DNA of 64,000 bases, taken from the NCBI GenBank assembly GCA_965178125.1, contig OZ237757.1:744001-808000 (forward strand), in the 5' to 3' direction. Positions 1 through 59,716 of this stretch are shown piece by piece (positions within the stretch are counted from its first letter, which is position 1; every line of letters starts with the position of its first letter). The translations under genes were made by a program, and so were the position numbers. Under the pieces are notes generated by a model, which did no database searches, was not told the DNA's origin, and saw only the letters and a list, made by a program, of their open reading frames with translations. The DNA is from Bilabrum cf. latius. Lineage: Eukaryota.

Positions 1-3000
1 AGCGTCCAGGTCGGCGGTGCTCGTCGATTCAGCGTGCGCGTTGCTTGAGCTGTCCTCGGGTAACACGCACCCCGAGTCCTATGGTGCTTGCAGTGCATCG
101 CTGTCCTGCAAGCTTGGCGAGAATGCAGTGCATCCTGGGGCAGTGCGGGCAGATGCCCAGGAGGAGCCAAGAGCCACGAGGCCTTGCATGTTCACTTGGC
201 TCTGGCCCCGATGATATTCGTCACCACCTAGTTCCCTAGGAGTTATGCTGCCACTGTCAACCACGCCGGCCCCTGCATGGCGACCATCCGAAGGTGCAAC
301 GGACTCGACTTTCCTGCGCAGCCGCCTGCGGATCCCCCCCGCCGCCCTCTCCGCCTCTATCGCAGCATCGCTGGCGAACTCCAGCCCGAGCACCACCGAG
401 TTCAGAGGCACCCTGCACTCGTGAGAGACGAACCGCAGCCTGGCTCGCAATGCGGCTGCATGTCTGTCCGCCTGCGCCACGGCAGTCTCCAGCTCATCGG
501 ATTGCACGGCGAACAAATAGAGCGCGCCCAGCACCGCAACCCGGATTGCAAGCCAAGCAAATCTCCAAGCCGACTCGCCTACCGTGTACGCCATCGCAGC
601 ATCTTCCCAGTCCTCCCGCAGGAGTTGCTGCAACGATCGATCAGCAAGATCTTCCGTGGGACAGGGGAAGAAATCCCGGATGCCTGCGATCAACGTGTAT
701 GCGCACTGGCAGACAGCCTCGGGGCGAGCAATCAGCGACTCCTGCAGGATATTCACCGCGATAAAGTGAAGGATTGCGGCAGTGGCCATCCCTTTCAGTA
801 CCACGGCCAAGAGCGTTGTGCGAGATCGCACCTGCCGCACCAGTGCCGCGCCGAGACTGCTCTGTGCCCCCGTCAGTCCCTGTCCACCGGGGTCCACGAG
901 AGACTCCACGCGACCGTCTCGAGAGCCGAGGAGCAGCGCTGCAGACCTCAACACGTGGTTCTCCGTCGCAGGATAGGTGGGATCATCGCCTTCAGCGCCT
1001 GCCCGGCCGCCTAAAGGACCGCAGCACAAGTCACAGCGCCCGCTAGTGCGATCCGGAGCGCTGCTTTTAAGGTCTGGCTGGCCACTCTGATGCCCACACC
1101 CGGGCGAAATCGCCACACTTGCAGCAACGAAGAACCCGTACGTGTCCGAGGCGGCCAAAATCCACTCGTCGCTGTCCTCCCAGATAGAGCACCACCCCTC
1201 CTTCCGTCCCATGCCGCCCTACTGCTACATAGCGCGACCAACGGTTGAACTGCTGCCAGCGCCTGCTCCTCGTCTGGTCCCTCCTGCGGGCGCCTGCTAG
1301 ATCTTTCGCAGTACCCTCAGGAGGCGCTGCTGGCCGCTGCGCAGCCTGGGAGTTCCTCGTCCTTTGCTAGACGACACATCGTTAGATGCAGCTGGTAGGT
1401 GGCCGCCATCGCATACTTGGTAGCAGCAGCAGGTGCTTATGCATGCGCCCATGCATCGGCACGGCACTCGCCAGCAGCACAGCGCTTTGCAGCACACCGA
1501 GGCGTGGCACTGACCAAAGCACACTGCGCATGAGACGGCAGCGGGAGCATCCGCCCAGTCCCAGGCGATCGTGCTCGTTAGCTCTCGGCTGGCCTCTCTA
1601 GAGCTTGGTGTTGCAGGCCCGCGTCTGGCGGCACCAGTTTCAGGGTCCAGCTGCACGTGAGAGCGCGGTGCAGCAACTGCAGCAGCGGCATGAATCGTGC
1701 TGGTATTGGCGGTCGAAACTGCGGGGGCCGTATCCGACGCAAGGTGAGGCACCGGAGCCACACCGCTTTGGTTGGCACCGAGAGGCGTGACCTTGCCCTT
1801 GCCCTTTGATGTCGATCTCCTCCTTTGCTGCTGGACGGCGTGCCCCCTCAATCTTGCTGCAATCACGTGCTACCCAAAGTGGACATCAGCTCGGTGAAGG
1901 GCCCGCCTCAAGCCCACCGCCGGTGTCAGCACAAAGAGGAGGAATCCCCACAGCGTGAATGCGACATGAACCACGGCAAGCAGCACGATCAGGCCCGGAA
2001 GATAAGCGTACACTCCCTCCAGTTTCTCTTCGTACAGCCTGGGCTGGCTGTTGCTTGTCCCGTCCAGCACATCGCTGACGGAAAGTGGGAAGGCCAGACC
2101 AGCAGCAGATGCGTTCCCGCCCGATGCAGCCACCTTGCCCCTGGCGTAGTCGAGGGCAGTCAGGGCCACAGAGGACTCGGCCGAGCTCATCCTCACGATG
2201 CACGTGTGCAGTACGTCAGATCGAGTGACTTCATTTTCAAGCAAGACGTCAGCATTGTGCTGGATTGCGCCACTGGCGAGCGCTGCCTGTAGAGCGGCGG
2301 AGGCATTGTCTCGGTCGTTGTCAGCATCTGCTCGCAGGGCGTGCTGCTGCATTGCTAGGAAATACAGTGGCTGGCCATCGGTGCCGGTGATGAGAGGCTG
2401 GGCCCACAGCGGCAGCTGCACGGACGCACTGCGATTCGGGGCAGGCGTGGCATCCGCGGGTCCCGCGGCCGACTGTGCCCACCCCTCCGTAGGTGCCCAC
2501 CAGAATCCACCGGTGGACCGCTGATCCGATCCCGACGATCCCGACCGGATCCGGTCGAGCTCCCTTGTGGCAGACACGCCTTTCTCGTACGACGCCGCGG
2601 AGGCCGCCAAGTTCGTGAAGCCAATGGTGGCAGATACGAATGCGTTTGCCGCGAATCCAACCACCACGCACGTGATGATGGTCACCAGCCTGCTCCTCTT
2701 GGCCTGGATCTCTGCCCTGGGCCTCGTGGCGTTGGCCGAGCCGATAATCATAGTGGAAATCACCACCGTGCTCACAAACACGGCCCCGGATACTGCCACT
2801 AGTGGTGACACGGTGCTCTGCTGCGGGATGGAGTACCGAACGTCCCCCACCGTCCATGGCTCCCCGCGCACCATGCGGGACAGGTAGTGCACGATGCCGC
2901 GAATCAGGCCGCGAGCGCTCGAAAATCGGATGACCAGCGGACCTTTCCCGAAGGTACCACCTTTGGGATCGCTGGTCTCTGGGACGTACTGGAAAAAGCT

Positions 3001-3723
3001 CTCCAACGTTGCCATGGCTGCAAGCGTCGTTACAAGCATCAACAGGACCGATCTGCGGGTGCTGCACTCGGCCAGGCAAGCACACTGCCAACAGGAGCCC
3101 GCGACAACGCGACGGCCGCCAACGTAATCTTTACGAATAGTGCTTGGCGGCACATGGTTGATAGGCCGAGTGCTTGCGGAAATCGCGGCGGTGTTGCCAA
3201 CTGCACCAAGTTCGCTTCCAGCAGGCAGAGATGAATCTTCAGCTCTATCTCTACGACAACCGCTGCATGCGTACATTTGCAGCAAAGTTTTCATTAAGCG
3301 GTTTCCCCCACCGTTTTTCCAAGCTTCAAGTACCCACAGAGCTGTTAATAATACCATGCAAGCGATAGCCACTAACACATTGCAGGCGCTAAAAATACCG
3401 ATTGCGTGCTGAGCCATCCGGGTAGAAGCCTGGAAATCCAGAAGCGAAGACAGTATTGTGCCAGTTTGCGATAGTCTAGACGAATAGTTTCTGGACGTAA
3501 GCGAAGGCCAAGGGGCAGCGAGCTCCGCTGAAGGATTCGCACCGCTCCTGTACAGCACTCCACTGCCCAATTCCCCCGTAAGTATATCGAGCACAATCGA
3601 GGTACCAGCAATAAGGATCATCGAAGCAAGTACAGGAACCAGCAGGCTTGTCCATGCGTGCGTTGCGAGCGCTTCGATCGCCGCGGCGCTTCTAGGCTAA
3701 ACGGTTCCACTGCTCGACACCAT
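1..3723 (-). CDS. Multi-pass membrane sensor histidine kinase (3' end runs off the window)
   Basis: ORFs 1870..3621, 1297..1866 and 79..1212 share one frame and are joined only by TAG (3697, 1870, 1297, 1225, 1219, 79). ATG at 3723 (caaATG). Several hydrophobic segments are followed by a coiled coil and an HisKA H-box, RLRFVSHECRVPLNSVVLGL. The frame stays open to position 1. Confidence 0.75.
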
Positions 3724-4298
3724 TTGAGACCGCACAGGGCGCAACCGAGGTTATTAGCAAGTCATGATTGATCCTACCAAAGGCAGATAAATCTAGATTC
3801 GTGTTGCAGAAGCTTACCGTCGCAGTCGCCGTTCGTGCTGCGAACAACGCCGTGACCGGCTGCTTTTGGTCGCAACTTGATTGAAGTCGCGGCGCTCATC
3901 AGCCCGGCTGCCAGTGGTCGGAGCCTGAAGTAATTAGGCTGACCGCAAAAGATCGGCTGAGGAACAAACGCATGCTACCAAGTGGAGCCAAAAGAAGGAA
4001 TTCCAAGAAACAAGAAATTGTATCCAAGCGTGCAAGCTGCGGCATCAGACCCCCGTGCTCAAACAGGCACAGGGACGCCGGCCAGTCTCGACATCCAAGG
4101 CCGAGCCGCTGCAGTCGCAGGGTGTCGCGCGGGACCAGCCCCCGAGGTAGCATCCAATACCGCCCCCAGGCGCTAGCCCCCAACGCCCCGCCGCCGAACC
4201 ATGCAAATAGAATGGTCGGGATTCAGGCGTGCGCGCGCGAACACATCCTGTTCCAGCTCTAGACTATCCACCACACCTCGTGGCAACTCACTGGGCTA

Positions 4299-4340: not shown

Positions 4341-4342
4341 AT

Positions 4343-6840: not shown

Positions 6841-6873
6841 TATTACGTCGATGGTACGGAGCGACGCTGCCGA

Positions 6874-9800
6874 ATGATTGCCTAGAATGGTGGACTTTAC
6901 CGCAAGCGCAAGCGGGCGCGCAACCGCCTCAACAGACACAGTCTCCCATTGCGGCATCAGGTTGCAGCCACGGTGGGATGTCTACTTTTGATTCTTGCGT
7001 ACATTTTCGGCCGCCCTGCTAATCTGCCAGGCAGTCCGGAACCTGCAGATGAGCCAGCGAGCGAGTGTGCACTTGGGCCTGCCTCCCGTAGGAATGCCGT
7101 TCTGTCGCAATTTAGAGACTTAAAGTAGGCTTCTAGGATTTTGGTTGTAGATCAAATCTCAGTCTCAGACTGGCAGGGGGCATGGAGTGCTGACTTGCAT
7201 CTGGCGCCGAGAGGCTGGGAAGAAGCCATGTCATTTGGCATGTCACGCACCGGAGCCACCCGACAGGTAGCAAGAACTGAAATCATGCAGGATGCAGCCC
7301 CCGGCCCATACTCCCACTCAGATCGATTCCGAGACTCCTTGGAGCGAGCAGGCCTGGAGGCAGCCGAGCACCTGCCCATGCTCGGAACAGCGCTGGCGCT
7401 CGCACGGGAGAGCGGGCAGCCCCTCGCGATGGCTAGCGTGACATTCCTTCTCACCGGGCCGGGTGTGCAGGAGCTGGCTGCGGCCGAGCTGGCGGTAGCG
7501 CAGGCACTCACTGCGGGCAGCGAGGCCTGCGCTGACCATGCCATCCGCGCCTCAGGTGTATCCGCCGACCGCTTGTCCCTCCTGTTCGTATGGAGGGGGC
7601 TGGTGCGCCTCCTAGCCCAGCGGGGCATCCGGGCTCTTCTCCTGCCTCGCTCCCCGGGCAACGTAATCGTCACACCGGCCAGCGAGATGGCCTCCTCGGC
7701 CAGCGATTTTCTGGACTGGATCGACCCCACTGCCGCTACAGGGGGGGAGGAGCCCGGGGCGGCCCCGGTCCGACTGGGGCACGCATTGGGGAACACACTG
7801 AGGCACTCGTTGGGCGGAACAGGTGCCGCGGGCACGCTGGGTGACCACGGGCCACAGAGTGGACAGCCAGGCTCTCAGTCGAAACAGGCCGATTGGGCGG
7901 CACGGCTGCCACCAGCCGCAGAAGGCCTCGGACCGTTCGAAGAGGTGCACGTGAGGGCAAGCCGGTCGCCCGCCGTCCACGCCATGCGCCGGCGCCGGAT
8001 GGGTGTGACGAGTGCACTCGCGGGCACCCGTTTCGTGGTCCACGCGGTGGGCGGCGGGGACGACCGCATGGTTCGCCAGGGAAGGTTCGTTGGGTCCGTG
8101 GACGAGTTGGTCGCAAGTGCCGCGGAGTACGTCAGCGTCGAGCTGGCCGATGCCGTGGTCGCGTGGGATGCAGGCGCGCTCCGTCGGCTCCGGAGGGCGG
8201 GCGCAGCGCCGCGCAATCCCGTTCTGGTCCCACCGCCGCTGCCGAACTTCACCGCTGCCAAGAGCGATTGGACCATCAGAGACGCCCCTTCCAGCACGTC
8301 TGGAACCCCCCGTGGTCCCAGCACCACTCGTCCTCCTCGCACGCGTCCAGCTGCCTCGAGGCATAGCAGCCTATCCGCGGCTGCCGCCAACTGCCTCTCG
8401 CACCGGCTGCATATATCCGTTGAGTCCCCGTCCTGGACCCCACTGCTTGCGAGAGAGACGGGCTTGTCGCTGGTGAAAGCAGCGGAAAGCATGCTGCAAG
8501 AGCTGCACCAGCACCAGGGGCAGGGGTAGGGGTAGGCACTTAATGGCGGCGGCGGTATGATAGAATCAGAGCAGGGCGCGCGGGTGCTGTTCCTATGCAA
8601 GCTGCACTGCACTGTGGCGGTATCTACGATGCAGGCGGCCGGCCTCGACGTGAAGAAGCTGAGCCGCGGCACTGCTCACGAGAGCAAGGGTCTTGACGAG
8701 CTGGAGAGTGCCTGGTTCAAACGGGTGGACAAAGTGGAAGATACAAGCGAGAGTGGTCAAAGAGGCAATGACGAGGACGCGGCACTCCGGGGTACCGGCG
8801 AGGACACCTTGCGGCCTCTGGCACAGACAGGCGAATCTGCAGAGGCCGCCCAGCACAGGGGCTTTGCAAACGGCCTGGGCCCCGCGCTCGGTCACACCCC
8901 GGGCCAGGCGCTTTCTCATTCGGAGGTGCTGGAGGACCCGTTGGTTGGCATGACATCGCTGGAACTCGGGGGATAGTGGGAGGCCAAGTTGGACGGGTGG
9001 CGTTCGGCAGCTGCTTCCAACATCGGTAGCAGGCGAAGATACCACGTGTCTGTTGAGATCGTGCAGGTGAGCTCGTACAGCGTAGCGTGGAGGCGCGCTG
9101 GGCTGCTCGGGCAGGTGCCGGAGCTCTGCGCCCTCGCGTTGTTCCCTCCCTCCTTCGCCGATGCCGCCTGGGACGCGCGCAGGTTCGCAAGCTTGGGGAT
9201 CCCGCCCGTGCTTCCTGGTGCGTTGTCGACTGAGGTGGAAGACGAGGCCATGCTGGTGGCACTGCAGCCAAATGCTGTGCGCGTGGACGGGCCGGGGGAG
9301 TCAGCCGGGCTCATTGAAGCGAGTTTACCCGTCGCACGTGCTGGGTCAGACACTGGCTGGGGGGAGGCGTGGGGCGCGCGGGATGGCAGCACGTCGGAGG
9401 GCGACGCGTGGGTGCTTGATCGGTATGAGATGCCGTCACCCACCACGCTGGGCAGGTGGCTAGCCAGGTCATTCGCTGGAGAGTCGCCAAAGGGTCGCAG
9501 CGGAGTCTCTGTATCTGGCCTCATCGGGCGGCTGGGAGTCGGCAGCCGGCCGCTTGCAATCACAGATCTAGATGAGGCAAGCACGCCTACAAGCGGTGCT
9601 TCCTCTTCTGCTGCTGCAACGGGTCGCGGCGCGGTGCATCGGCTGGTCGGTACCGAGGCAGTGGCAGCTGGCCTGCGCCAGGTCCGTGCCGCATCGGAAG
9701 ATTCCGCGCGGGCCGCCGCTGAGGCGATCGCGAACGTTCGCGATCGGATCAAGAACGACCCACCGCTGGTGACCGTCTGCATCGCGACAAAGAACCGAGG

Positions 9801-10903: not shown

Positions 10904-13900
10904 TCACGCCTTGACCACCTTCACTTCGATCGCGGGCGACTGCATGGCTGGTTCCCACAGCCGTTGCTCCGCCGATGCAGATCGTCCCACCACCTCCTAC
11001 CCAGCGACAGCCTGCGCCTGTGCCGACAACGTGGCCGCAAAGCCGTCCAGCTTGTCGCAATGGACGATCACGTCGTACCTAGAGGGCTGGAAAGACTCCG
11101 GCAGCCACGCAGGGCCGCGTAGCTCCAATCTCTTCCGAAGGTCCAGGCCACAGCCAGCACTCCCTGTGCCGGCGTTGACACCTCCGACATCACTACCACT
11201 TGCAGCGGTAGCAGATGCACCACTTCCAGCGCCAGAAGACGGCCCTTCCTGCTCACCAACCTCCCCATCCCCTTCATTGCCCATGAGCTGCTCCTTGCGG
11301 GCCTCCAGCATCGTCTGGATCGACTCGAGCCGCTTCACGCGAGCAAGTTTGGCCACCTTTCGCAGGCCGGTACGGGCCGCGTGCTCGAGGAGCAGCTAGG
11401 CGCTGCTTAATTCGGGCACGCTGGTGCCCCTAGCCCCCGCCTTGGCTCTGGCTACCTCTGCGCTGGCCATGCATTCGGACCAACCCTATCCGCTGACTTG
11501 CTGCAGCCAGGGGTCGTCAGAAGACTCATCGGTGGTGTCGTCACCGTCTTCGCCTTTATCCGCCTTATCTGCGGCTTGTTGGATCGCGTAGATGGCCAAA
11601 GCCGCCGCTTCCCATGCATCCGCACCGTCTATTTCTGCCTGTGGCAGCGCCGCCGCACTCTTCAGGCCGCCCGACCTGCAGAGCAGCACCACGCCCGCGT
11701 GTGACCCATCGACCGGACTCGTTTTACCTGCAGACGGGCCGCGCACTGACACCCGCACCAGCGCCAAGGGGACACACCCCATGGTGAGAGCATGTTCCAC
11801 CAACACCCGCCTGCTCCCCACCTTCATGGCGACCCAGCCACCGAGCACCAGCCCTCGGGAGAGCAGCCCCAGGCCCCGGTCCTCCTGCTTCTGTTCCAGC
11901 TAGCCGACGAGGTCCCTGCCCTTCGCGATTGATGGCGGTGCTCCATTTGCATCCGCTTTCACTGCATCCCTTAGGGATGGTCTCTCTAGCATCGAGGTGG
12001 CGCGGTCCATGACAGCCTGCAGCACCAGTGCCAGGCTCCTTCGCCGCAATCCACCGATGGAGTCCTCGGGCCAAGCTCGCGCCAGGTCATCGGCGAGGCC
12101 CCTGGGCTACATAAAGGGAGGCACCACCACCCGCCACGCCTGTCCCGGCCGCAGGACGATCCGCACCGCCACGCTGCCGCGAGGGAACAATGTGCCTGGT
12201 GCCACGTGCAGGCGTGGCTTGGCCTTGGCCTGCCGCCGCCTGCGACGCACGAGTGCGCGGCTGCTTTGTACCTTGCGGAACTTGCCCGCCGGCGAGGTGA
12301 TGCGCGGCGACATGAGATTCCGTCTGGACAGCATCCCACCGCGCGTGGAGCCGGGCTCGCGCCCCTGCCCCTGCCCCAGCCTGGCAGTGGGTGCAGGTGA
12401 CAGGAGCAGGCTAGGCCGTCGTCCACGCGCAGTTTTCTTTCCGCCTCGTCTCGTACCATCGTCTCCGTTCTTCCCCTCGTCATCCTCTTCCTAGTTACCG
12501 CCGCCATCGACCTCATCGCCGGCTATTGGAGCGGTGTTACCCTGGGCACCGTGCTGCTCCCTCATGGGCTCCTTGTCGTTGCTGTCCGCGATGGCAAGCG
12601 GGGCCAGCCCAGCCCCGGTGCTGGAGATCCTGCTAGTGCCGCCGCCCGTTTTGCTGCCATAACGGGTAGCGCCATCCTCGTGCTCTGCTAGCTTTGTTGT
12701 TCCCTCGGCGCTGCCAGGGGCCGGTGCTCCCCTTTTGGCCGTCGTGTCTCGGTCTCTGACCTCCTGGCCATCGCTCGATGCATCTACGGTCGCGGCATGT
12801 CCGCCAGAAGCCGCGGAATTAACACCACGAGACTGAGGCCCGCCCGGCCCCTCTGCGGTCTATGCAACACCAATGGCTGGGGAATCATCTTTGCCGTGCA
12901 AGCCCTTCCCGAGAGCATCGGCTTCCATTGCGAGTCCGTTCGCATCGGCGTCTTCGAAGGGGGAGAAGCCCAGCGGGTGCAGCCGACCCATCCCATCGTC
13001 TGCTCCGGCTGCCATCAGCTCAGACCTCGTCCAATCCACCGCCTCTCTTTGGCCCAGCAGGCCAGGCCACGGCCCCTCCCCCTCAAACACAGCCTCGTCT
13101 TCATCATCGCCCCGCAAAACGACCCCGCCAACACCCGCCTCCCCTGGGTCCACCACACTGCCCTCCATCTCGAGCCCCGCCAACGCGAGGCCCAGACGAG
13201 CCCGGTACATGGCGTAGGCTAGCAGCATTGCTGCCCGCATCCCGCGGACGTCTTCCGGCATGGGCTGCGGCGGCGCCGCACCACCTCTTGCGGAACCACC
13301 CCCGGGGGACGGAGCCGGGACGGGGGCGGCCTGGCCAAGCATGTCCACGTTCCTGGTGGCGCCCGCAGGCAAAGATCCCTGCTGCAGGGCGAGCAGATCC
13401 AGCTCCGGCACGACGTACGAGTACATCACACGGTCGCCGGCGGTGGATTCGCTGGCACCGGGCTGGTTCTCTCCCTCTCCAGGGAGCCCCAAGTCGATGC
13501 CGAGCACCTGCACCACCACCTCGTACTCGTGCTCCGGGGCCTGCTGCCACCCCTGCACCATCTCGGGGAGCGGCTTCGTAAGCACAACGTGCCTGCACAG
13601 CACGATGTCTTCCACCCACCTGCCCCGGAACACCCACGCCCTTCCCTTCTTGTCCGTTTGGAGCCTCTCCTCGTCGGGCACGTCTCGCCGCAGCCTCCTG
13701 GCGAGCACCATTGCCGCCTCGTCCGAGATCCGCATCTCCTCCTCTTTGGCCACCTGGGCCTCCTCCTCCGGCGAGGGCGGGCCCTTGCCGAAGATCGCAG
13801 CGAAGAAGCCGCCCCTGGGCAGCGCGTCAAGCTTTGCCTGCACCCGTACTGGCGCAGTGCCTCCCTCTTCCCACCTTCGAAGCGCTGTCAGCTGCTTCTG

Positions 13901-16900
13901 AAGTACGCGGGAGGCCTCTTCGTCCACCTCCTCCTCGGCGCCCACCGCCTCGTGCCTACCGCTCCCATCTCCAGCAACGGCATCTTTCTGCGTGCTCGCG
14001 TCCTGTTTCTTCCTGTTTGGCTGTTTCCTCTTCTTCTTCTTCTTCTTCGGGGAGCCCAGGCTGCCCCCCATGCTAGGCACCGCACCTGACCGGATCAGCA
14101 TGGTGACTTCCTCCTGCAGAGCCAGCTCGAACCTGGGCCGCACCCTCCTCACGAGCACTCCCTCGGGCAGCGCCTTGCGCATGTCGTGCGCCTGTCTCAG
14201 GCGTTCCGCGACCCTGCGCTCCCTCAGCCCGCGGAACACTGCAGAGAACAGCGTGGCGGCGCTTGACTTCACGGCGTGGTCTGCCTTCCTTCGGTTCAGC
14301 TCACGCTTCGCCAGTGCCGCACGGACCGCGCTCTGCGCCCGGATCGCGGCCTCACGCTTACGGCTGAAATCGGCGCGGGCTTGCTTGCCCTTCCAAGCTG
14401 CGGCGATCGAGGAACTGGCTCGGGCCTGCTCGGCGAGCTTGCGGCGCTCCGCGTGGCCTTTCCAGACGCTCTGCAGCCGCTGCGCTGCCTCGGTGTGCTC
14501 GATTCGCATCCTAGCCGCGCGGCGCCGCGCGAGCATGCCCCGCGCGCCCGACTGGAGTGCCAGCACGGCGACTCTTCGCTTCTTCTCCTCAGCCATCTGC
14601 GGCGCAGTGAGGCCTCTGGATTGTCTGCCCCGCCACGCGGCCTGCACCAGAACTGCCGCCCTGTGTTCCCTGGAATCTTTGATCCCCGCGGCGCGTTTTC
14701 GGCCCTGCAGTCCCCGCCACGCCCGCTGCACTCCGGTGGCGCTCCGGTGGAGCGAGCGCACCTCCTCCCGCCCTGTGTGACCCCGCCACGCAGACTGTAT
14801 GACGAGTGCGGAGCGCTGCGATTGCATCCTGTACGATCGGGCCCGCTTCCTCGCCAGCGCTCCCCGCACCACTCTCTGAATGGCGGTGGCGGCAGCACCG
14901 GCGTGGATGCGCCAGCCCTTGGCGTACAGCCGGTCCATGTGCCCCCTCCACAGCGCCTGCATCCCCACGGCGGCGGTCCTTTGTCTTGACCTGTGCAGCA
15001 GCAGCATGGTCCGGGTGGCCCTTCGGATGGCATGCCCCCTCCAAGCCGACTGGATCTCCACGGCGGCCTCCTCGCGGGCCCTCCATCGTGTGGCTCGCTG
15101 CAGCACCGCCAGCTCGCGGCTGATCTGCCTGCGCGCGGCGTGAGGGGCGCGGAGCACCCTGCGTGCGGACTGGGGAGGCAGCGGCTGGGACCGGGCAGAT
15201 TGCCCCTGCTGCTGCCTGTGCATGCCCGATGGCTGCTAGTGCTGCTGCTGGGCGAACAGCGACTCGCTACTTGCTGCGATGGGGGCGGACTCGTGGGCGC
15301 CGTGTTCCCTGGCCCTGCCGGTGCCGCGGCCAGCTGTGGCGCGATTTTCGATTCCGAGTCCGTGACCGATGCCGAACGGCAGTCGGCCCAATCCGCCCGC
15401 TGGCGCGGGCACGGGTGCAGACCTGCCCCCGCCCGCCAGCGCATGCCTGGAGCGATCGTCACCTCCATCAGCGCCAGCAGGTGCGGGTGCCAGTTTCCCA
15501 CCACCAGAGACAGGAAGAGGACGAGCACGTCCTTGGCCACCAGCTGTGGATGCGTTGTTCCCTGGGACGCCAGACCCTCGCTCCTCGTCCTGTGCCTGCC
15601 TTGCGCTCCCCGCGCCCTGCAGGCCGGGCTCGAGCTCTGCATCCAGATCATCGTCAGCAGCCTCGCCCGTCTCGGGTGCACCATCGTGCGATGCATCCGC
15701 GCCACCGTGCTGCTCGTCCCAGCGCCTCCCGGCTTCTGCCACCCTGCGCGCCCTGTGCGTGGCGGGCTGCTGCATGTGCCTCTGCCGCCGCATCAGCATC
15801 GCCCTCATCTGCTGGTACCGGAGCTCAGCGAGCCCCCCCGGGCTGAATCCAGGGTAGGCGGGGGAGCGGGCCGAAACGACGTTGCGGCTGTACGGGGAAG
15901 CACTCGTCACACCGCGTCGAGCGGTAGAGCTGCCCCTCCCGCCCGAGTGGCCCCGGGCCCGCCCCTGCCTCCCCCCTACCTCGTCATCATCCTCATCCTG
16001 TTCTGAGGGGTCAGTGTATGCGCGAACCGTGGCCACGGTCGCAGCCCGAGCGGCCTCGCGGATTCCCCTCAGCGACAGACCGGGCACGTGCTGGCGCACC
16101 CGCGGTATGCTCCCTTGATGCTGATGCTGCTGGCGGTCCCGCGGGGGTTTGGGGCTGCCCCGGCGTGCGGAGTGGGCGCCCTGGTGTGACGAGTAAGATG
16201 AGGAGAGGATGGGGCTCCATCTCGGCTTGTAGCCGCGGTCTTGCTCCTGCTCCATACCATGCTCCACGAGGGGTACACTCACCACAGTGTCGGTGGTGGC
16301 TGCTGTGTTCCCCAGCGATGCCCCTTCGGTGGCGGGAACTGCTGATGAACGACCGCCTCCGCGATGATGCAGGCCCCTGTCGCTGCTCATGCCTCGTTTC
16401 TAGCTGCCACCGCTCGGTGGCGGTGGGGCCGCCTCTCGCCAGGCGGCGGGCACCGAGTACCCTGCGGATGCCCCGCCGCGGCCGAGCCTCGAATCCACGT
16501 ACCGGCGGGCCCCTGATACCACGCCAGACTGGTACAGACCGCGGGTCCGGGGCGTCTGCTCGGCTATCGGGGGTGCTGGTGTGACGAGTGCGCTGCCCCT
16601 AGACGTCGGGGACGTCCCGGGGCGCTTGGGGATTGTGCGCGAATGCTGGTCTGAGTTTTGGAGATGGCGGCCCCCGCCGACGCTGGCGCGAGATGCGCGG
16701 GTGTGACGAGTGTCATCGCGACCGAGGTCGCGATCCTGCTCGTCGTCATTCCCACGGCTCGCGCCCGACCTTGATGCGTCGGCGAGGGCCCAGCCAAAAG
16801 GCCGGCCGAGGCGGAGGCCCTCCGCTTCTTCCGGCTTTCCGCCGGTTTGGCCACCGTATCCGTGATTGGTGCTGCGATCATTGTGTCCCGTGCCAGTACT

Positions 16901-19900
16901 ACCACTTTGACCAACCTCGTGATGCAAACCCGCGGTGACGTGGAGGGTAGCCGGCGGGAGCAGCATTCCTCCCTGTGACCCCCCCGGATCCATCCCCGGA
17001 CCTGGGCCGTTCTTGCCGTGAGTTTGGCCACCCATACCCACCATGGGGAGGGTAGACCCGGGCGAGGGCGCCCCGTCGGTGTGACGAGTGCCCTCCAGCC
17101 TTCGCTGCTCGTCCCTCGCCCTGGCAAGCTCCCTCAGCTGCCGCTTGTGCACTGCTTCGTCGCCCAGCATCGTGTTCCCGTGTGACGAGTGGCCTCGCCC
17201 CGAGGCAGAGCTGCCCTGCCGCCCTTTCTGATGCTGCGACTGCTGCTGATGCGATGGGGTCGAGATCATGCCCGGTTCTGGCGCGGCCAGCTCGCCCCTC
17301 TCCGCTGCCAGCCTGGCCTGCTTGATCTCGAACTTCGCCACTGTGGCGTAGCTGTGCGCGGTCTGGCTGGGCCTGCCCGCCCCGGGCGGTTGCTGCAGGC
17401 GCTCCCGGCGGTGCCTGGGGGCTTCTACCGGGGCGTGGCCTCTCCTTGCGAGGTCCTCGGCCCGTTCACCCGGCCTTGCGCCCGCACCGGCCTTCAGCAG
17501 CCGCATCCCGAAGGCACCCGGGCCCGCCGATAGCTCCTGCTTTGGGGGCACCAGGCCCCTCCGGGCCGCCTCTGCCTCCTCCCTGAGCCGTTGTTCCCTG
17601 GATTCCCGGTCCGCCTCGTGACCCGCCCCCGCGGGCCGCATCTCCTGCATGCCCATTGGCTTGATGGGCTGAAGCAGATAGCCTGACCTGGGCACGTGGG
17701 TGTCCGAGGCCCCCCTGGATTTAGCCAGCTTTTCCTGCTCCTGCCTGGCCTGTTCCGCAGCAATCGCGCTCTTGGACCCCGGCTCGTGCGCGGAGAGAAC
17801 GGCTGGCGAGTCCTCCATGGCCTGCTGCTGCCTCCGGAAGGCCGCGGGGGGCGCGGGTCGGCCGGACGTGGCGCCGCCCTGCCCCCTCCACCAAAGGACC
17901 GGGTTGGCCTGCCCCGCCGTCCCCGGCTCTGCGACGGCCGCCACATTGGCCACTTTTCCCTTCTTGGTCGCACGGGTGGGACTGGTCGCTTCTGGGTTGC
18001 TCTGCTGCACCCGCCAGTGCTCGTCGCGATGCCTCCAGTGGCCCAGCGGAAGGGCGCCAGCACCATCACCGGATCCAGCCTACGAAGACGTGGTATTACC
18101 GGCGGTTCTGGTGTGACGAGTGCCCCGCATCGGAGCCGCAACCACGGTGTCGACCCCCGCGGTGCCTCCACCGGTCATGCGCGCGGGCCCGCCCATCGGC
18201 CTCGCCGGCGACTCGCCCAGCGCGTAATCGAAGATGGGGCGGACCCCCTCCAGCTTGAACGGCTTCAGGGGGTCGTACGTGGGTCCTCGTCCCTTGGGCC
18301 CCGTGTTGAGCGGGTCACCAACCAGCGCGTTCCTCTGTCCGTCTCGTGACCCGGGCTCCGCCCTCCGACTCAGCCTGCTGTCCACGGGCCTCCGCAGCAT
18401 GACTTCCTGTGCCGTACTGCCGTAGGCGTACTCGAGCGGGTGTCGGCCGTTGCTTTGCTGCTAGGCCTCTTGCTCGCCCAACTGCCTGTCCCCCTGCACG
18501 AGCCCTTCCAGCCCCCCTGCAGAGGCGTTGACGCCCAGGTGCAGGTTGGCGTCCAGCGTCTGGGAGCCCGTGATGGACCGCCTGCGGCCCCTGAGTCTGC
18601 CGCTGGCTCGCAGCAGTTGCTCGTTGAGCATCTCCGGTGACAGTCCCCTTGCATCGCCGCTGAGGCCGCCCCTCATCTGCTCCCCGAATCCATACTGGCT
18701 GGCCAGCGCGGCTTCTAGCCTGGCCCGGGCCTGCTCCGCGCCCCCGTCGTCCGTTGTTCCCTCGTACTCGGCCCGCATCCAGTCTCCCAGCTCGTCACCC
18801 GAGGACATGACCGGGGGCAGGCCGCGAGCGGCGCGCTTCTTGTCGTACCGTGTGCCAGCCAGCAGGACGGGGAGAAGCGCAGGGGCATGCTTCTCGGCGA
18901 AATGCAGGGTGTCATCGCTGACCGCCTTGTACCTCCCGCCGGGTATGTGCGCTGGCGCGGGGCCCGCGTCTGCGTACCCTTTCAGCTTCTTGAGGAGTTC
19001 CTTGTCTGGCGCGTTCGGGTCTTTGTCCCGCGAGGATGATCCCCTGCCCCGGGCACCCCTAATGGGCGACGATATCGATGTCGATGTCACTCCCGCGCGA
19101 TGCCTTCCACCGCTGGTGGCGGCTTTCCTGAGGCCTCGTGCCCTGCCACCCCCAGTCAGCTTCACCGCAAGGGGGCTGTCTGCCTGCCCGCCCCCGGAAA
19201 AAGGCCCACCGAAGCTGCCACCGCCAGGAACGGAAGAGCCGCCCCACGCAGACTTGCGTGACCCGCCGCCCGCCCGCAGACCCGCCAGTGACGTGGTGCT
19301 CCGAGCATGACCCGTCCCGCCGTTGCGCAACGCCCGACCACCGGCGGCACCCAGCATCGAGGTGCTGCGGCTTCGTCCCATTATCGCCTCTTCCTCGTCC
19401 AGCCCCTCTTCACCGCCTTGTTCCCTGTCCTCGGACCCACCCTGCTGCGCCCTGACGAGTGCGGTGCGTGCCCCGGTGAACGCCAGCATGCCGCGCACCC
19501 TGCCCCCCGGCCCCTCCCCGATCAGCTGCCCCGCCGCCCTGGCGTACTTCATCTGCCGGCCCGTCTTGAACTCGATGGCCTGCAGCTCCCGGGCGCGCTT
19601 CACGGCCTCATCCCGGGGACTGATGGGCTTCCCGCCGGCCGTGTCGCCCAGCCCAGGCCCCGCCGTGGCTGGGTCGTGGAAGCCCTCGAGCTCCAGCTCC
19701 TGGCCCTCCAGGAACTCCCCCGGTCGCACCTCGGTGTGACGAGTGCTACCTGCCGTGTGACGAGTGTCCCCGTCGCTGCCCTCCCTCCGGTCCGCCTACC
19801 TCCTCCTCTCCTGCATGTCGATGGCGAACTGGGTGCCATCCGCTGGCAGCCTGGAGGATGAGGAGCCGCCCGCTCCCTCCAGCGCCACGCCGTGTTCCCT

Positions 19901-22900
19901 GAGCCACTCCCTCGCCACCTGCCCGGTGGGAATCGCACCTGCGCTCGACCTGCGCGCCGCCACGGCGAGCTTCTGCCTGGGGGTGAGGCCCAGCGCCTTG
20001 GCGGGGATCATGCCTGTTTCCGCGGTCTCGATGAGCATCCCAGCCACGTCTCTCGGGGCAGCATCCGCGGCCTCCTCGGGCGACAAGCCGTGCTCGGGCA
20101 GCAGCAGCTGGGGGCCCGCGGTGGAGGGCCGCGCCGAGGAATCGCCCCCATGCGCGCCGCTCCTGCCCGACTGCCGCTGCTGTTGTTCCCTGGACCGATT
20201 GCCGTCCCGGCTGCCATAGTCCCCAGAGCCCCGCATGTTCCGCAAAGCCAGCGGCGCCACGCGACCCTTGGAACCACCGGAGCCGCCGCTGCCGCTGCCG
20301 CTGCCGCTGCCGCTGGCTGCATCCGTACCACCCACGTCGCCGTAGTGCCCCTCGGCACTCGGGTCGTATCCCAGCTCGCCATGTGGCCCCGCCACGCCCG
20401 GCAGCGCTCGCCGCGGGGACGACTTGGCTGCGATCTGCTTCTTCTTGGTCTTGACCTCGGGGGCAAGCTCTGACCCCGCCATGGGGGCTCGCGGGGTGGG
20501 CGGCAGCGGTTCCGCAGTACCCGCCGGCGGCGCCGCGTGCCTCAGGGAGCGAGCGGCGTCCCGCATGGCTCGCCCGAGCGGGTCCGCGAGAGCCGCCGCT
20601 CGCCCCAGCGCGGCCTGGCAGGCCTCCCACCCCTCGGTATACGCCACCCTGGCCTGCCACAGTTCCATGCGGTGCTCGTGGGTGGCACCCAGGTTGTAGC
20701 ACGCGCCCATCAGAGCGGGGAGGGCACCGTCGTTCACCGCCCGGCGCAGCGGCGTGACACCGTCCAGGGTAGGCTCGGCCACGAACGCGCCGACGCGCCG
20801 GGCGAGTGCAGACGTCACGGCTCGGGACATGGTTCTGGTAGCCTTTTTCTTGCTCGCGCCATCGTGGCCCCGCCGGGACCGGGACTGGCCTCCGCGGCGA
20901 GACGCTGCCTGGCTGCGGCTGGTGACCCCCGTCCGGCGGGAGGCCGCGGTGTGACGAGTGGTGGCGCTACCGACCGATGCGGAGTCGCCGATCGCTTCGC
21001 CCGGATCGACTTCCCCTGCCGCCAGCATACCGCTTCGCGCGCTCGACGGCTGGTTGCCAGCGGCAGATGTCCTGGACCTGGTCGACCTGGCGGACCTCGC
21101 CGTCGAGATGCCCGGGCTGTCACTCGTCACACCCTATTCCTTGTTCTCCGGACTCCGGGCCGAGTCTCCCCCGCCGCCTCCGCCACCACCACCTCCACGA
21201 ACTGCCCTGCCGCCCACCCTGTCGAATTTCTTGGGCCGAAGCACCGGAGGCGGCGGCAGCGCGTCTGGCCCGAACACCGCAAGGATGAGTCGTCGCATCC
21301 TCCTCTTGGCCGCAATCGCGTGTGCCTGTGCCTGCTCCATTCGCTTGAGAGCCATCAGCGGGGCGCACACGGCCAGGTGCGCCTTGGCCGTCTCGATGGC
21401 CGACTGCGCCTCGCCGGGCGTCAGCGGCAGGTACCTCACATAGGCGGGCACCTGGGCGGCGGAGTCGTCCACCTCGTGACCCGCCGGCGCCGCGAGCGGA
21501 ACCACCGATCCACCGGTGGAGCCCGTTCGGGTCCGACTGGCCGTTGTGCTGCTGCGCATCAGCACCCCGGCACTCGTCACACCGCCGGCGGCCTCGATGG
21601 CCGGCATGGCCCTCGCCAGAGCACCCACCTCCTGATCCGAGGCCCCGAACGGGTTCGTCACACGGCCGCTCTGGCTCGTCACACCACCGTACCCGCCACC
21701 GCGGGAGCCCCGGGCTGCCGCAGCATCCCTGGCCGCAGCCTGCATGGCTTTGTCCATGGTCTCCGCGGGATCGAACCCCGATGAGGGCCCCATCCTCACC
21801 TTTGCTTGCGCGAACCGGGCCCCGTGGAATATGGTGGGCTCCTCGCCCCCTGGGACTCGTATGACCCTGCCCCCGCCTGCTCTCTGCTCCTCCATGCGCT
21901 TCTCTCCCTCTGTGTCGCCCACGATGGTCACTTTTAGGCTGCCGTCGTCTTTTTCTTCTTCGTCTTCTTCATTCTCCGTTCCGCCTCGTGCTGCACCCCC
22001 GCCGCCGCCGCCGCCGGAGAGGGAGACTTCGCCCGCCCGCCTCTTGACGATCTCTGCCGCGGCTGCCATCGCAACGTCCAGCCGTTGCAGCCCCATGAGC
22101 GGCGCGCCGCCCTCCCCATGCCCCACCAGCCCCTGCTCGTCCAGCACCGGCTCGCCCCCTGCTTTCCCCCCGCCCGACCCACCTCGCCCCCCCTCCTCCT
22201 CGTCATCGTCCCCACCTTGCCCTCCGGTCACCTCGCTCCACATGGCCTCTGCCCCCTTTCGCCTCGCCTGCTTGTGCCCCTCGGTGGCCAAAGACGCTGT
22301 GCCCCGACGGAGGCCCCCGCTCGCGTTCCTGGCGAGCCGGTCCACGGGGACGTCATCCAGCATGGCCCGGCGGGGCAGGTGCGTGCTCCGCACCGACACT
22401 AGCGCGCGGCGCCCCTTGGGCACGCGGCCGCTCGTCACGGTACCCGCCGACGGATCGTTGGGGTCTGCAGCGTACCGGCCCAGGCGGAACCCCGTCCCAG
22501 ACTCCCGGCCAGAGCCGATCCCACCGGAGGCCGTTGAGCCCTCGTCTCCCATGCTGGAACGACTCATCACAGATCCCTCGCCGCCGCCGCTTTGGCCACT
22601 CGTGCCACCCGCGGTGTACCCGCCCTCCGTCTCCGCATCCTCCGCGATCCCCACCCCGGACAGCGCCCCGGTACCCGCTGTTCCCCGAGTGGCCACAGAC
22701 GCACGGCTGCCCCTGCGGCTCCCCCGCGCGGACCCCGAAATCTCTGCGGAATTCCCCTGCAGCTGACCCCCCGGGGAACCACCGCTTTTCTTCCCCTGCC
22801 CCTGCCCCTGCCCCTGCCCCTGCCCCTGCCCCTGCCCCTGCCCCTGCCCCTGACCCTGCCCCTGCCCCTTGCCCCGGCCGTGCCTGGCCGCTTTCAGGTC

Positions 22901-25900
22901 AGCCCGCCTAGAGACCGCGTGCTGCCTGACCGAGGCGTCTAGCACACGCTTGCGCAGGGCGGCGGCGAGCGCCACGTCCTGCGCCCCCGTCGCACTCGTC
23001 ACACCACCGCCGGTGGCGGACGCCAGCCCCGCCGCCAGGAGGAGCCGCCCGTCCCTCTGGGCCTCCTCGCTGCTGCCTGGCCTAATCGCCTCCCCCTCCT
23101 CCCCCCCGAAGAGCCTGGCGGGGTCCTCGCCCGCCATCCGGCGGCGGGTCCGGCCCTCGGAGCGAGCGATCACGGACTCGGAGTCCCTGCCCCAGCGCTG
23201 CAGCTGCAGCTGGTGGGCCCCGAGCAGCTGCAGAGCCTCGAGGGCGCAGTTGAGTGCCTCCTCCGGCCGCCCCGCCCGCATCAACGCCCCGGCTGCGTGG
23301 CTCTGGGCCTGGGCCAGCCGAGGGGGGGCGGCCCAGGAGCTCCAGCGGTCCGAGGCGGCGCGTGCGGCGCGGCGCCGCGCCTGGGGGTGGAGGTTCCGCA
23401 TGCCCCGCTGCAGGTCGAGCAGGGCGGTTTTGCCCCCGCGCTCCGCGGGCGCGTCGTCGTCGTCGTCGCCACCGTGCGATGCACCCGATCGAGTCGACGC
23501 CGACTCGATCGATTCCAGTGGATTGCTATCGCCATTTGCAGCCTGGCCCGGGCGGTGAGGCACCAGGTCGAGGGTGTCTCTGGTGCCCCCTGCTACTGCA
23601 CCCCCCTGACGTGCGCCTTCCCGGGCGTGCTGTGACGAGTGAGGTGGGAAGGAGGGTATGTCCTAGGGGGTGGCGGCTAGGAGAGCACGCTCGTCCTCGC
23701 CCCCCGTGAATGCGGGTGTCCGGGCCCGCATGCCCCCCCTCGAGGCCGGCACCTGTGGCACGGTGTCTTTGGAGCCCCGTCTGTGGCGATGTTCCGCAAA
23801 CACGCTCGAGGGAGTGCGCGGCGCCGGGCCGGCCCTGGCCGCCCCCACGTCCGTCGCTCGCATCGGCGTCATGACGAGAGGCCCGGATCGCGCGGCGCCG
23901 GTTCCGCCGTGGCTCGGGGGCGTCAACGCGGCGCGACCGCTGCTGGCCGGGGCAGCGTCTTCACCTGAGGCGCTGCCCCGCATCCGGGCCACCGGGGTGC
24001 GCGGCGCCGAGGATGCGGAACCGCCCGGGGCAGCCCGGCTCGAGTCGTCCATTGGAAAGGCGCCGAGATCCTCCAGCCTGGTTGCAACCGGGTGAGGATC
24101 GGTGTGACGAGTGGATGCGCCGCTTCCCTTCGAGCCGCGGATGGCGGCGGCCAGGGGGTGCTCTTGCTCCTCCTGCTCCCGATGCAGCCTTTGTCCCACT
24201 CCTGTGTCCGCGGTGCTGGCTGTGCTGCCCGCGGTCCGGCTCGATTGGGCGCTGCCCAGCAGCTGCCTGCGCTTGGGGTGACCCATTTCCGATTCCGGGT
24301 CCCCGGCAGAGCCCGCGTCACCCCCCTCCCCGTCCCCCTCCCCCTCCCTTGGGGTCAGGTCGAGCACGGTGTCGTGTCCCTCCGAATCCAGGCTAACCAG
24401 CCTCGTGCGATGCACCCCGTCCTAGTGGTCGAGATGCTGGCCGCCGGTGAGATCCCGCTGCTGCTTTTGCCACTGCTGCTGCTGCTGCTGCTGCTGCAGC
24501 TCGCCCACGTCCACGTCCCCGTCCACAGACGGGTCCGTCACCGCGGTGATGCGAGAATGGGCCGAGTCGGGCCTCAATTGCGCGGCGCCGCCGAAGCGGA
24601 ACCTCTGAGGGGAGGGCCGGCCGGACTCGCCGGTCCCTACGGAGGCTGCCCCGAGGGGGCTGGGGAACACAGAACCGCCGCTTTGACCACCCGCGCTGGT
24701 GAGGGCACGTCTCGGGGGCAGGCCTTCCTCGTGCTCGTGCTCGTCACCGTCGCTCGCTTTCTATGCGGCAGCGGTACCTCCTTCTCGTTCTCCTCCTTCT
24801 TGTTCTCCTTCTTGTTCTCTGTCTCGCCGGTGCCCAGCAACAGCCCCCGTCCGAAGCTCCTCTCCTTTCCTTGGCATGAAGGCGTCCCGCCTAGACATGC
24901 CCTCGTCGTCGTCGTCGACCCCAACCCCCCTCCTACCCCCTTGCTCCCCCCTACCCCCGCGCCTGACCCCACTTCCCCCGGGTAGGGCGGGGACAGACAC
25001 CCCGTCCGGCGCATCTCTAGTACCGTCCCCAGACTTGGTCGATCCCCCCGTTGTTGTCGTTGTGGGCGAAGAACCGGCCGACCTGCGCTCGGAGAGAGGG
25101 GACCCCTGATGCCTCACGATGGTGGTGGCTCCGATCGATACGCGCCTCTGCTGGCGACGGACCCTGCGCACGGCCTCCGACCGGCTCTCATCCAGGTGCG
25201 CGGCGGCGCCTCCTGCGGAACCTGTTTGCGCGGCGCCGCCGTCCCGCCGCAGGATCCCACCGATGGACTCGTGGTCTCCGCCTCCGCCCCTGCCCCTGCC
25301 CCTGCCAAGCACCGGCCGCGCGTCGTCACCGACGCCCGTGGGTGCCTCAGACACCCCCGACACGGACGGAGCATCGTCTCCGCGGAGACGCCTGGCTGGC
25401 TGCGCTCCCCTTCCCGAAGCAACTGCTCCTGCTCGCCTGGTCCCGTGGCTGCGCAGCCCCAGGCCGGGCGAGCGAAGGCCTTGCCGCGCGGCGTCCACTA
25501 CCGGGCCGCCCATCCTCTCGTCAAACGCATCGGAACCGCCGTTCAATTCGAAGTCTTCCTCTTCGTCGACAGGGCCGAGCAGCGCGGCGGTAGCGTCCGT
25601 GAGCACTTGCAGCTTCATGCGGCCGTCGTCCGATCCGGCGCCGCCCCGCTCGACTCCGTGGGCGGAAGCCGGGTGCTCGGCTTCCTGTGCTATCGATCTA
25701 TTCAGTCTGTTGATCTGCCTGTCCTCTTCCTCCAGGGCAATTGCAAGCTCAAGTGTTGCCGCGTCAACGAACGGAGGCGGGGCTACGCCGGGCCCAGCAC
25801 GCATGGCATCCTGGACGCTTGCTTCCTCCAGCAAAGCATTCAGCTCATGTAACGTTGGATCCGGAGGCTCTGCGGCACGCAGGCGCGATGAACCACAAAA

Positions 25901-26039
25901 TAAAAGATTCAGAAGTGACGACGAGCGCAAAGGGTTAAGGGCCGTTGGCACCGTTCTAGGGATTACTTGAGGCAAAGGGCAGCACATATGCGAGCCTCAG
26001 CTTACTTTTAAATACTGGCGGTCTTTGTGACCGCGACAT
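10904..26039 (-). CDS. Giant (~5,000 aa) low-complexity protein with an array of IQ calmodulin-binding motifs
   Basis: Thirteen ORF-track fragments lie in one frame, separated by 16 TAG and no TAA/TGA until TGA 10904. Short exon 1 (26039-26006) and a phase-matched intron 26005-25870 (GTAAGC..GCAG). IQ motifs at about 14200-15080 (IQSAWRGHAIRR, IQRVVRGALARK, VQRAWRGLQGRK, LQSGARGMLARR). Confidence 0.75.
15901..24113. other. Cluster of dispersed 13-bp motif GGTGTGACGAGTG / CACTCGTCACACC
   Basis: Exact copies at 15901(r), 16578, 16700, 17078, 18110, 19733, 20948, 21121(r), 21571(r), 22993(r) and 24101; two more exact copies at 8002 and 27825. Confidence 0.9.
22793..22869. repeat. (CCCCTG)n hexamer repeat encoding poly-(Gly-Gln)
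   Basis: Direct reading; encodes GQGQGQ in the giant minus-strand CDS. Confidence 0.9.
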
Positions 26040-26405
26040 GTCGAACTTTACGTTCTGCTAGCGGGAAGGAAAGGTTTCGGCAACGGATGTTGCATTGCAT
26101 GGAGGTGCAAATTGCGGTGTGGTCGCTGGCGGAGGTCGCAGCAGCTGCTGAGCAGCATCCTAGATCGAGCGATGATATCCATGCACGCGCCGCATTCAAC
26201 TCCATACCCGGAGCATAAGCTGCCTAGTCAACCCTGTTATAGCAGCGGGGAAATTCACCCGGCTGCTGCCCCGGTAACGGCGTGCAGCGTGTGTGGTGTG
26301 TGTGTGCACGGGAGGTCGCAAAGTCCTCGTCACATGCGTCGCACCACCGCCGGCGGCGGTTGGATCAATCCAGATTCAAGCGCCTGGTAAGCCCTAGGCT
26401 AGGTC

Positions 26406-29462: not shown

Positions 29463-30145
29463 TCAGTCCCTATCCTCAAATGCCTTCACAATGGTCGAGT
29501 GGTCGCACAGCCCCTTCATGAATCTGCAAGAGGTGAGAAGAGCAATGGGTGGTGGCAAATTGCTGACCGTCTGATTTACAGTGGCTCGTTCACAAGCAAC
29601 GACACGCGCGCGATACCCGAGTAGGGCCGTGCAAATATATGCAAATACACTGCTGCTCACCTGTTGCACTTATCGGCGATCGCGCGAACTACGGTATTGC
29701 GACTGCCGGTAGTGATCCCCACGCCTGTCAGCCATTTGCCGAATGCCTCCTGCAATAATCAAAAGCAGGGACCGCGGACAGCTACCATGCTCAAATCATG
29801 AGCCGGCATTGGGTCGCTATAGGTGAACTGGCATGGGAATCTCCCCAAGCTCAAGGCGATCTTGCGAAAGTTCGCAAGATCCAATTTAAGGATCGGTCGG
29901 CACTACCAACATATGGCTTTGCTCACACAGTGGTCCAGTGAAGACGCGCTCTTCTCATGCAAGCTCAAGAACTAGCCGATCACCGCAACGGTACTGGTGC
30001 AACCAGCATCCTGCAGTGCCTTGACGTACGCAGGACCGATGCCCGGGATCGTGAGGAGGTCCTCGTCGATATCATCCGATACGAACTTGTCAATGCTGCC
30101 CTTGGCTGTCTCGCTCTTGAGTGGGTCATAGTGTACTCCTGCCAT
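29463..30145 (-). CDS. Barrier-to-autointegration factor (BAF)-like protein, copy A
   Basis: Exons 30145-29927, 29749-29661 and 29523-29463 (GT..CAG introns, phases match), 122 aa, TGA end. KFVSDDIDEDLLTIPGIGPAYVKALQDAG..AVIG*FLSL..EAFGKWL resembles the BAF helix-hairpin-helix fold (LAGIGEVLGKKL..VVLGQFLVL..FREWL). In-frame TAG at 29972. Confidence 0.75.
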
Positions 30146-35748: not shown

Positions 35749-35880
35749 GATTTATGCGGTGTGGTGGGCGCTATCCTCAATGCAAAGGTAAAAAATGAAT
35801 TGAAAAGCTGCATCGGTTCGCAGCGAACATTCGCTCAAGTTGAAACGAAACTCGAGCAGCTTGAAAAATTAAGGCTAGCC

Positions 35881-55897: not shown

Positions 55898-56069
55898 GTT
55901 GCGCACAGCGATTGAAGTTGACTGGTGCGCGAAGAATGTGCTGCGTGTTGGCACAATGGTGGTGTGGTTTTCTTGCCGATGTTGGGCTCGTCATCCCGGC
56001 CGGCGGTGGATTTGGTGACCGTTTGTTGGAATCATCTGGAAGAGGATTGCGAGTTGTACGTCCGCGAAA

Positions 56070-59357: not shown

Positions 59358-59716
59358 GTGAAAGGGGCCTATGTGCTGGGTGCTGCGGCGAGATTCTCGT
59401 GTTCTATCCCCAGGCGACTGGTCTCAGCGGACGGATAGGCGAGTGTGCTGCAAGCGAAGAAGTTACTCGTCAAAGTGCCCCTTCTGTTGCTCCAAAAAAC
59501 TGCTTTCACGGCTAGCGTTGCAAGTTCACTGGGGTGCGTAGTGAGTGCGCACTTCTTGATTGTATGCAGGCTCAATGTTTGTTTCATACGATGGTTGGTG
59601 CCCGAGACGGGCTGCCGGTTGAACTGTTCTGCATTTCGGGTGGTTGCGTGTGATTTGATCGCACCAGTCAGCAGCCTGCTCATCGCACGCAGAAAAAGCC
59701 GCCTTGGGCGGCCAAC

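Follow-up and report, generated by a model that had tools for sequence, protein, structure and literature searches.

In a 64,000-nucleotide stretch of contig OZ237757.1 (positions 744,001 to 808,000; hereafter the window, meaning this whole stretch), the codon UAG is used as a sense codon, and it very probably specifies glutamine (Gln), with UAA and UGA kept as stops, a complete reassignment resembling NCBI genetic code table 15. The assignment had been proposed from the nucleotide sequence alone, with attention to a tract in the open reading frame (ORF) of a glycosyltransferase 2 (GT2) protein, CAG CAC CAG GGG CAG GGG TAG GGG TAG (8509..8535, plus strand), which reads QHQGQGxGx with x for TAG. 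This original prediction, which called Gln the best inference rather than proof, is supported here by evidence other than codon context: Gln is indicated because a close relative replaces TAG mostly by CAG or Gln, and because TAG lies on near-invariant Gln columns of a helicase in three metagenome contigs, L001, L002 and L003. The window organism is a probable further case of an already known rare code variant.

TAG as a sense codon

Eight long ORFs, together comprising 14,382 codons, contain 69 in-frame TAG and not a single in-frame TGA or TAA, whereas reading this DNA in its other two frames gives 97 and 83 TAG, 188 and 242 TGA, and 38 and 46 TAA, respectively. The in-frame density of TAG, 4.8 per 1000 codons, thus amounts to 71-83% of the off-frame density. 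The window offers no stop-free frame longer than 842 codons when the standard code is applied; with TAG alone read through, frames of 5030, 2353, 1449, 1315, 1250, 1112, 947 and 926 codons open up. TAG is clearly a sense codon in the window. The terminator is TGA in 13 of the 14 ORFs and TAA in one, the DENN gene; TAG was always read through when ORFs were called, so that genuine TAG terminators are not recognisable by this method. With CAA and CAG used in the ratio 124:450, TAA as a further Gln codon should occur in frame ~19 times, and it never does (P about 6e-9); therefore, TAA is not a Gln codon. Read as Gln, UAG accounts for ~11% of the Gln codons.

Comparison with contigs of the close relative rests on the 40 of 1768 nucleotide differences that were listed. 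All but one of these (39/40) fall in long ORFs, where they touch 38 codons: 23 are changed synonymously, 13 non-synonymously, and 2 are TAG. This excess of synonymous changes shows that purifying selection acts on the frames. That the TAG codons are not translated at all, belonging to pseudogenes or introns or arising from RNA editing or assembly errors, is hardly credible. Introns do exist in this DNA: a 206-nt GT..AG intron of the bL25-like gene (51188..51393, minus strand) is removed, on the gene's strand, in a joined contig of run X8, and weakly BAF-like genes, treated below, show an apparent intron beginning GTGAG directly after ...DHC(V). A TAG at 29905, which is AAG in the duplicated BAF-like copy, follows this 5' splice-like site and is probably intronic. 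Against such an explanation for the long frames stand the 69 TAG versus 0 TGA or TAA, which effectively refute it, the excess of synonymous changes, the conservation of the same sites in the relative, and the occurrence of the same TAG in L001-L003, three independent metagenome contigs. Moreover, contigs of run X8 with zero differences to the window span the helicase TAG codons at 60053, 61445, 63164, 63263, 63299, 63557 and 63569, all seven of them unchanged; judging from the one joined contig, this run, whose record does not label it as RNA, would hold spliced RNA.

Residues found in place of TAG

The close relative is represented by contigs about 90-94% nucleotide-identical to window positions 44001-64000, which make up the matches in runs X9, X10 and X11 and part of those in run X8, and by predicted protein fragments in large protein collections, with 83-94% amino-acid identity to the window. 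Its genome occurs alone in three runs, one organism-labelled and two labelled protist and algae metagenome, and in run X8 together with the window's own sequence; it could belong to a sister species, or be a second haplotype or subgenome. The 'shorter' protein searches gave 3 and 2 fragments, and the representative protein search with the helicase returned distant helicases, apart from 1 close fragment and a few relatives at 33-51% identity. The near-length protein search with the window helicase gave only one weak match, and no relative of the DENN piece was found in the metagenome_contigs or genome_contigs collections.

Both TAG codons among the listed nucleotide differences have become CAG. 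One, at 47478, lies in the DENN-domain ORF (41973..49034, plus strand; 18 in-frame TAG, terminator TAA), and the other, at 60980 (changed in run X10), in the SF1 (AAA_11) helicase ORF that runs past the window end (59654..64000, plus strand; 12 in-frame TAG). In the protein fragments, Gln likewise stands opposite TAG 12109 of the IQ-motif ORF of 5030 codons (10904..25996, minus strand; 16 in-frame TAG, terminator TGA) and, in fragment P0007, opposite TAG 62111 of the helicase. Counted over the 20 residues around each site, flanks are identical at 20/20 positions for 47478 and 12109 and at 15/20 for 62111. Seven distinct changed TAG sites were found, of which four are Gln, with one each of Tyr, Met and Asp and no Glu, Lys, Leu, Ser or Trp; both sites with perfectly conserved flanks are Gln. 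With 4/7, the proportion of Gln resembles that of synonymous changes in ordinary codons among the listed differences (23/36, 64%), and this match, with the other candidate residues at 0/7 (Tyr at 1/7), favours Gln.

The boundaries of the relative's fragments carry further information. Fragments stop exactly before the window's TAG 43122 and 44640 (DENN) and 11398 (P0005), one restarts just after TAG 42534 (DENN), and fragment P0006 ends about two residues before TAG 12862. The exact stops and the restart imply that the relative carries a stop-type codon at these sites and, therefore, that the reassignment predates the split.

A more distant lineage provides the conserved positions. L001, L002 and L003 (GC content 57-59%) were obtained by a metagenome scan with the helicase homologue P0009 (JGI), and their helicase frames extend over the full contig only when TAG is read (no TGA or TAA but 29 TAG in 2801 codons), some of the TAG sites being common to several of the contigs. 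After the near relative, they are the closest homologues of the window helicase, with which they share long exact stretches. The original prediction had proposed tabulating the residues that align with TAG at conserved columns; done for these contigs, aligned to 143 distant helicases from the representative protein search, the tabulation yielded two helicase columns, both Gln. The TAG in LAGDPRxLG, present in all three contigs, falls on a column that is Q in 134/136 homologues for L001, 135/137 for L002 and 105/106 for L003, and the window helicase itself has Q there. The TAG in ITPYALxRMKI falls on Q in 80/87 homologues for L002 (upstream frame) and 75/90 for L003, the remainder being mostly gaps. 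In SF1 helicases, we take these two positions to correspond to the Gln of motif III and to that of the 'PYxxQ' element. Opposite a third TAG of L001 and L002 (HLAAxLS), the window has Gln and L003 has Glu. In the variable parts, mutual comparison of L001-L003 gives a wide scatter of residues (Q 4, S 3, E 2, A 2, one each of H, K, V, R and D, plus gaps). Contig L002 contains the 3' part of one helicase paralogue (1-1446) and a second, complete-looking copy (1865-5019), whose N-terminal domain and core lie in different frames, pointing to an intron or frameshift around 2590-2780.

A number of observations weigh against Gln. In the relative, TAG 44505 (DENN ORF) is replaced by Tyr (flanks 17/20), and TAG 11488 and 11902 (5030-codon ORF) by Asp (15/20) and Met (19/20), respectively; the Met, which combines two base changes with conserved flanks, is the least comfortable observation of all. 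No TAG codon of the window itself falls on a Pfam column of strong conservation. Distant alignments of the window helicase, at about 30% identity, are uninformative: P0012 has Asp, a gap and Gln opposite the N-terminal TAG codons, and opposite TAG 62330 there is Asp or a gap in both P0009 and P0008. The invariant columns were reached through a related lineage, whose kinship to the window is based on one gene.

Two further points of this kind, both raised as caveats in the original prediction, come from paralogous or repeated sequence. In a helix-hairpin-helix, weakly BAF-like gene, the first exon (29924..30145, minus strand) carries TAG 29974 in the motif VIGxFLSL, and the duplicate copy (31390-31611) carries TAG 31440 in the same motif, whereas two paralogues have Lys at this site (AAG in 32755-32973 and AAA in 34046-34273). 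The suggestion that this TAG pairs with the Gln of the animal BAF motif GQFL can be upheld only tentatively: TAG does stand in VIGxFLSL, but the family match is below threshold (SAM_BAF of Pfam at 21.5 and 21.6 bits versus a gathering cut-off of 25, with HHH_5 about equal), and PDB BAF chains were matched at E=1.8. In the second case, a putatively coding tandem-repeat ORF (KPKMELYGGKPADN..., 35716..36552, plus strand) consists of units of about 150 nt (35900-36550), and its TAG 36106 has TAC and TAT as counterparts in the remaining two units, while TAG 36229 and 36388 are retained in both units; neither a family match nor a clear coding signal was found for this ORF, the start of which overlaps an ankyrin-repeat ORF on the opposite strand. 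Self-comparison of TAG contexts yielded only the 36106 repeat, a palindromic low-complexity match and a probably intronic site.

The residues other than Gln (Tyr at 44505, Asp at 11488, Met at 11902, TAC/TAT at 36106 and Lys in the paralogues) are best explained as ordinary non-synonymous change, an explanation helped by the fact that TAG read as Gln is one step from TAY; the Lys in the BAF-like paralogues and the Tyr at 36106 and 44505 fit variable or possibly non-coding sites. Alternatively, UAG might be decoded ambiguously, mostly as Gln with near-cognate Tyr or Lys, or as sense or stop depending on context as in Condylostoma and karyorelict ciliates, and we regard this as very unlikely. 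The Tyr, Met and Asp seen where some TAG sites have changed, the lack of a tRNA(CUA) gene in the window and the invisibility of a true TAG terminator to the ORF method used would all accommodate it. However, inefficient read-through would forbid both the high in-frame density of TAG and its presence in conserved domains of the relatives, 14 of 14 ORFs reach TGA or TAA, and the non-Gln residues stand mostly where the flanks vary too.

Codon context, on which the original prediction had relied when it described TAG as replacing CAG in Gln tracts, contributes less. Every site quoted in that connection is present and in frame with a long ORF, at 1227 and 1221 (AMxQxGG), 15238 (QQQHxQ) and 18463 (EAxQQ) on the minus strand and at 47979 (QLQx) and 27618 (AExEEE) on the plus strand, but the general pattern is barely above chance. 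Gln occurs 11 times at ±1 of the 69 TAG versus 5.5 expected (p=0.024, uncorrected for 20 residues) and 22 times at ±3 versus 16.4 expected (p=0.10). To the contrary points listed above must be added that Asp, with 30 occurrences at ±3 versus 20.8 expected, is at least as enriched as Gln; that a neighbour-profile likelihood gave negative log-likelihoods throughout, supporting no residue and ranking Asp and Glu above Gln; and that many TAG lie within acidic runs (AExEEE, NxEEDDE, SEDxEDD, SESExDRDR). Such runs make Glu a serious rival on context alone, and the site at 27618 indeed reads GAG TAG GAG GAG GAG, as had been cautioned. Codon context is a weak guide that by itself cannot separate Gln from Glu or Asp.

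It is nonetheless highly improbable that UAG encodes a single residue other than Gln, be it Tyr, Lys, Leu, Ser or the Glu known from Blastocrithidia and some ciliates. Glu could draw on the acidic contexts and, like Asp, on the neighbour statistics, Tyr on site 44505 and the repeat units facing 36106, Lys on the BAF-like paralogues, and Leu on the Met at 11902, which would then be a conservative change. Yet, with ~64% of ordinary changes being synonymous, Glu, Lys, Leu and Ser appear at none of the seven changed sites and Tyr at one, the two perfectly conserved contexts are both Gln, and at the invariant columns reached through L001-L003 the share of homologues with Q is 98-99% and about 85-92%.

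Genes and repeated sequences of the window

GC content across the window is 58-72%. The frames opened by reading TAG contain eukaryotic Pfam domains (DENN, IQ motifs, U-box, SprT-like with zinc ribbon, AAA_11 helicase and glycosyltransferase 2), and smaller genes encode a Vti1-like SNARE, a bL25-type ribosomal protein, a CHCH protein, a DUF4476 protein, a caspase-like protein and the four helix-hairpin-helix, weakly BAF-like paralogues. Genes are closely spaced, with frequent strand switches. The best explanation is that the DNA is nuclear and comes from a gene-dense, GC-rich eukaryote, and the bL25-type ribosomal protein and the CHCH protein presumably reflect ordinary mitochondria. No Rfam families were detected in the 64-kb window.

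Besides the DENN, IQ-motif and helicase ORFs, in-frame TAG codons occur in five long ORFs. The GT2-domain ORF (6814-10761, plus strand), which includes the Gln-rich tract, has five and ends in TGA. The ORF that runs past the window start (1..3750, minus strand) has six, at 3699, 1872, 1299, 1227, 1221 and 81; no Pfam family was found for it, and a single motif, read by eye, would make it histidine-kinase-like. Three TAG are present in the U-box ORF (26391..29234, plus strand), including the one in the Glu run at 27618, and three in a low-complexity ORF of 926 codons (53210..55990, minus strand); the SprT-like/zinc-ribbon ORF (56019..59357, plus strand) has six, four of them in a Ser/Asp/Glu-rich tract. 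All three of these ORFs terminate with TGA.

A segmental duplication comprises about 29370-30700 and about 30840-32260, with an offset of about 1466 bp and about 99% identity, and each segment holds one BAF-like/helix-hairpin-helix gene plus a copy of the U-box gene's final ~95 codons (28.9-29.2 kb). Beyond it, at 32.7-33.0 and 34.0-34.3 kb, lie the two more diverged BAF-like paralogues. The tripeptide Gly-Asn-Thr (GGN AAC/AAT ACN) occurs 13 times as a raw count, in 6/8 long ORFs, and forms the last three residues of the GT2 protein. In addition, the 12-mer GGTGTGACGAGT is present in 15 exact copies versus 0 expected from 100 shuffles, at positions 8002, 15902, 16183, 16578, 16700, 17078, 18110, 19733, 20948, 21122, 21572, 22994, 24101, 27825 and 54886. 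It occurs on both strands, is followed by G in 13/15 copies and has unrelated flanks; 12 copies lie within the 5030-codon gene, and at least 13 are in frame in coding sequence, where they yield the peptides GVTS (6) or TRHT (7). The 12-mer, which was not found in metagenome contigs L001-L003, may serve in protein or RNA binding, or may be the signature of recombination or insertion.

Mechanism, significance and comparison with known codes

Under the favoured assignment, UAG would serve as an ordinary sense codon for Gln, UGA as the main terminator and UAA as a further stop. By analogy with other cases, UAG would be decoded by a dedicated tRNA-Gln with anticodon CUA, and UAA would have been kept as a stop because this anticodon would not read it; loss of UAG recognition by eRF1, again as in other cases, would have completed the change. 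The uncoupling of UAG from UAA is expected to proceed via a CUA-anticodon tRNA unable to read UAA (PMC11687900). No tRNA genes were found in the window (ARAGORN; Rfam scan) or in L001-L003, and no eRF1 gene among the window ORFs scanned with Pfam.

A broader possibility, to which we would give slightly less than an even chance, is that an undescribed GC-rich eukaryotic lineage evolved a UAG-only stop-to-Gln code independently of ciliates and fornicates, its members being the window organism, a sister that differs from it by about 7%, and one or more environmental clades that are more distant and occur in three metagenomes. If so, the change arose in a genome that terminates mainly with TGA rather than TAA and whose high GC should keep TAG a common codon instead of a vanishing one, which would be awkward for simple codon-capture scenarios. 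Changes of the nuclear code are rare, and cases in which UAG is uncoupled from UAA rarer still, only a handful being listed in passages of two sources (PMC11687900, PMC5304391). A further GC-rich, apparently non-ciliate lineage would be an independent data point on stop-codon capture and would bear on why Gln recurs as the destination. In practical terms, standard-code annotation of this genome or its relatives truncates most long genes (the relative's database fragments end exactly at TAG), and gene calls, domain inventories and phylogenomic placement need table 15. Full-text searches, with incomplete coverage, returned no report of a GC-rich non-ciliate organism with UAG as Gln, nor was the GC content of Protocruzia found in the literature search.

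Among known variants, table 6 (UAR as Gln, in many ciliates, Hexamita, oxymonads, some ulvophyte algae and Amoeboaphelidium protococcarum) resembles the window code in the stop-to-Gln change and, presumably, in the use of a tRNA-Gln derivative. It was rejected for the window, where in-frame TAA is absent versus ~19 expected and one ORF ends in TAA. An aphelid origin (Amoeboaphelidium), considered since the relative is present in runs labelled algae and protist metagenome, was rejected on base composition, the GC content being 40% in Amoeboaphelidium (PMC10608142, table 1) versus about 60-70% in the window. UAG alone is reported to have been reassigned to Leu (the rhizarian exLh; TARA phyllopharyngean ciliates), Ser (Scotinosphaera) and Glu (an oligohymenophorean ciliate with UAA as Lys) (PMC5304391, PMC11687900). 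These codes share with the window the uncoupling of UAG from UAA, whereas here Leu, Ser and Glu appear at 0/7 changed sites and the conserved columns are Gln. Codes with UAG as Glu, whether of the Blastocrithidia type (UAR as Glu) or the ciliate type, were likewise set aside on the 0/7 count and the Q columns, only the acidic context speaking for Glu.

The closest match is the table 15 type, in which UAG alone encodes Gln, as reported for Iotanema spirale (Fornicata) and the ciliates Protocruzia tuzeti, Hartmannula sinica and Trochilia petrani (PMC11687900). In Iotanema, UAG makes up ~8% of Gln codons (PMC5304391), so that UAG is a minority Gln codon both there and in the window (about 11%). 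The window code is alike in having UAG as a sense codon, most likely for Gln, and UAA and UGA as stops. It differs from the table-15 cases in its GC content of 58-72%, its 64-kb multi-gene contig and its dominant terminator, TGA (13/14). Phyllopharyngean ciliates have gene-sized chromosomes, which a multi-gene contig does not fit, and, in contrast to the fornicate Iotanema, the window encodes bL25-type and CHCH proteins that we take to point to ordinary mitochondria.

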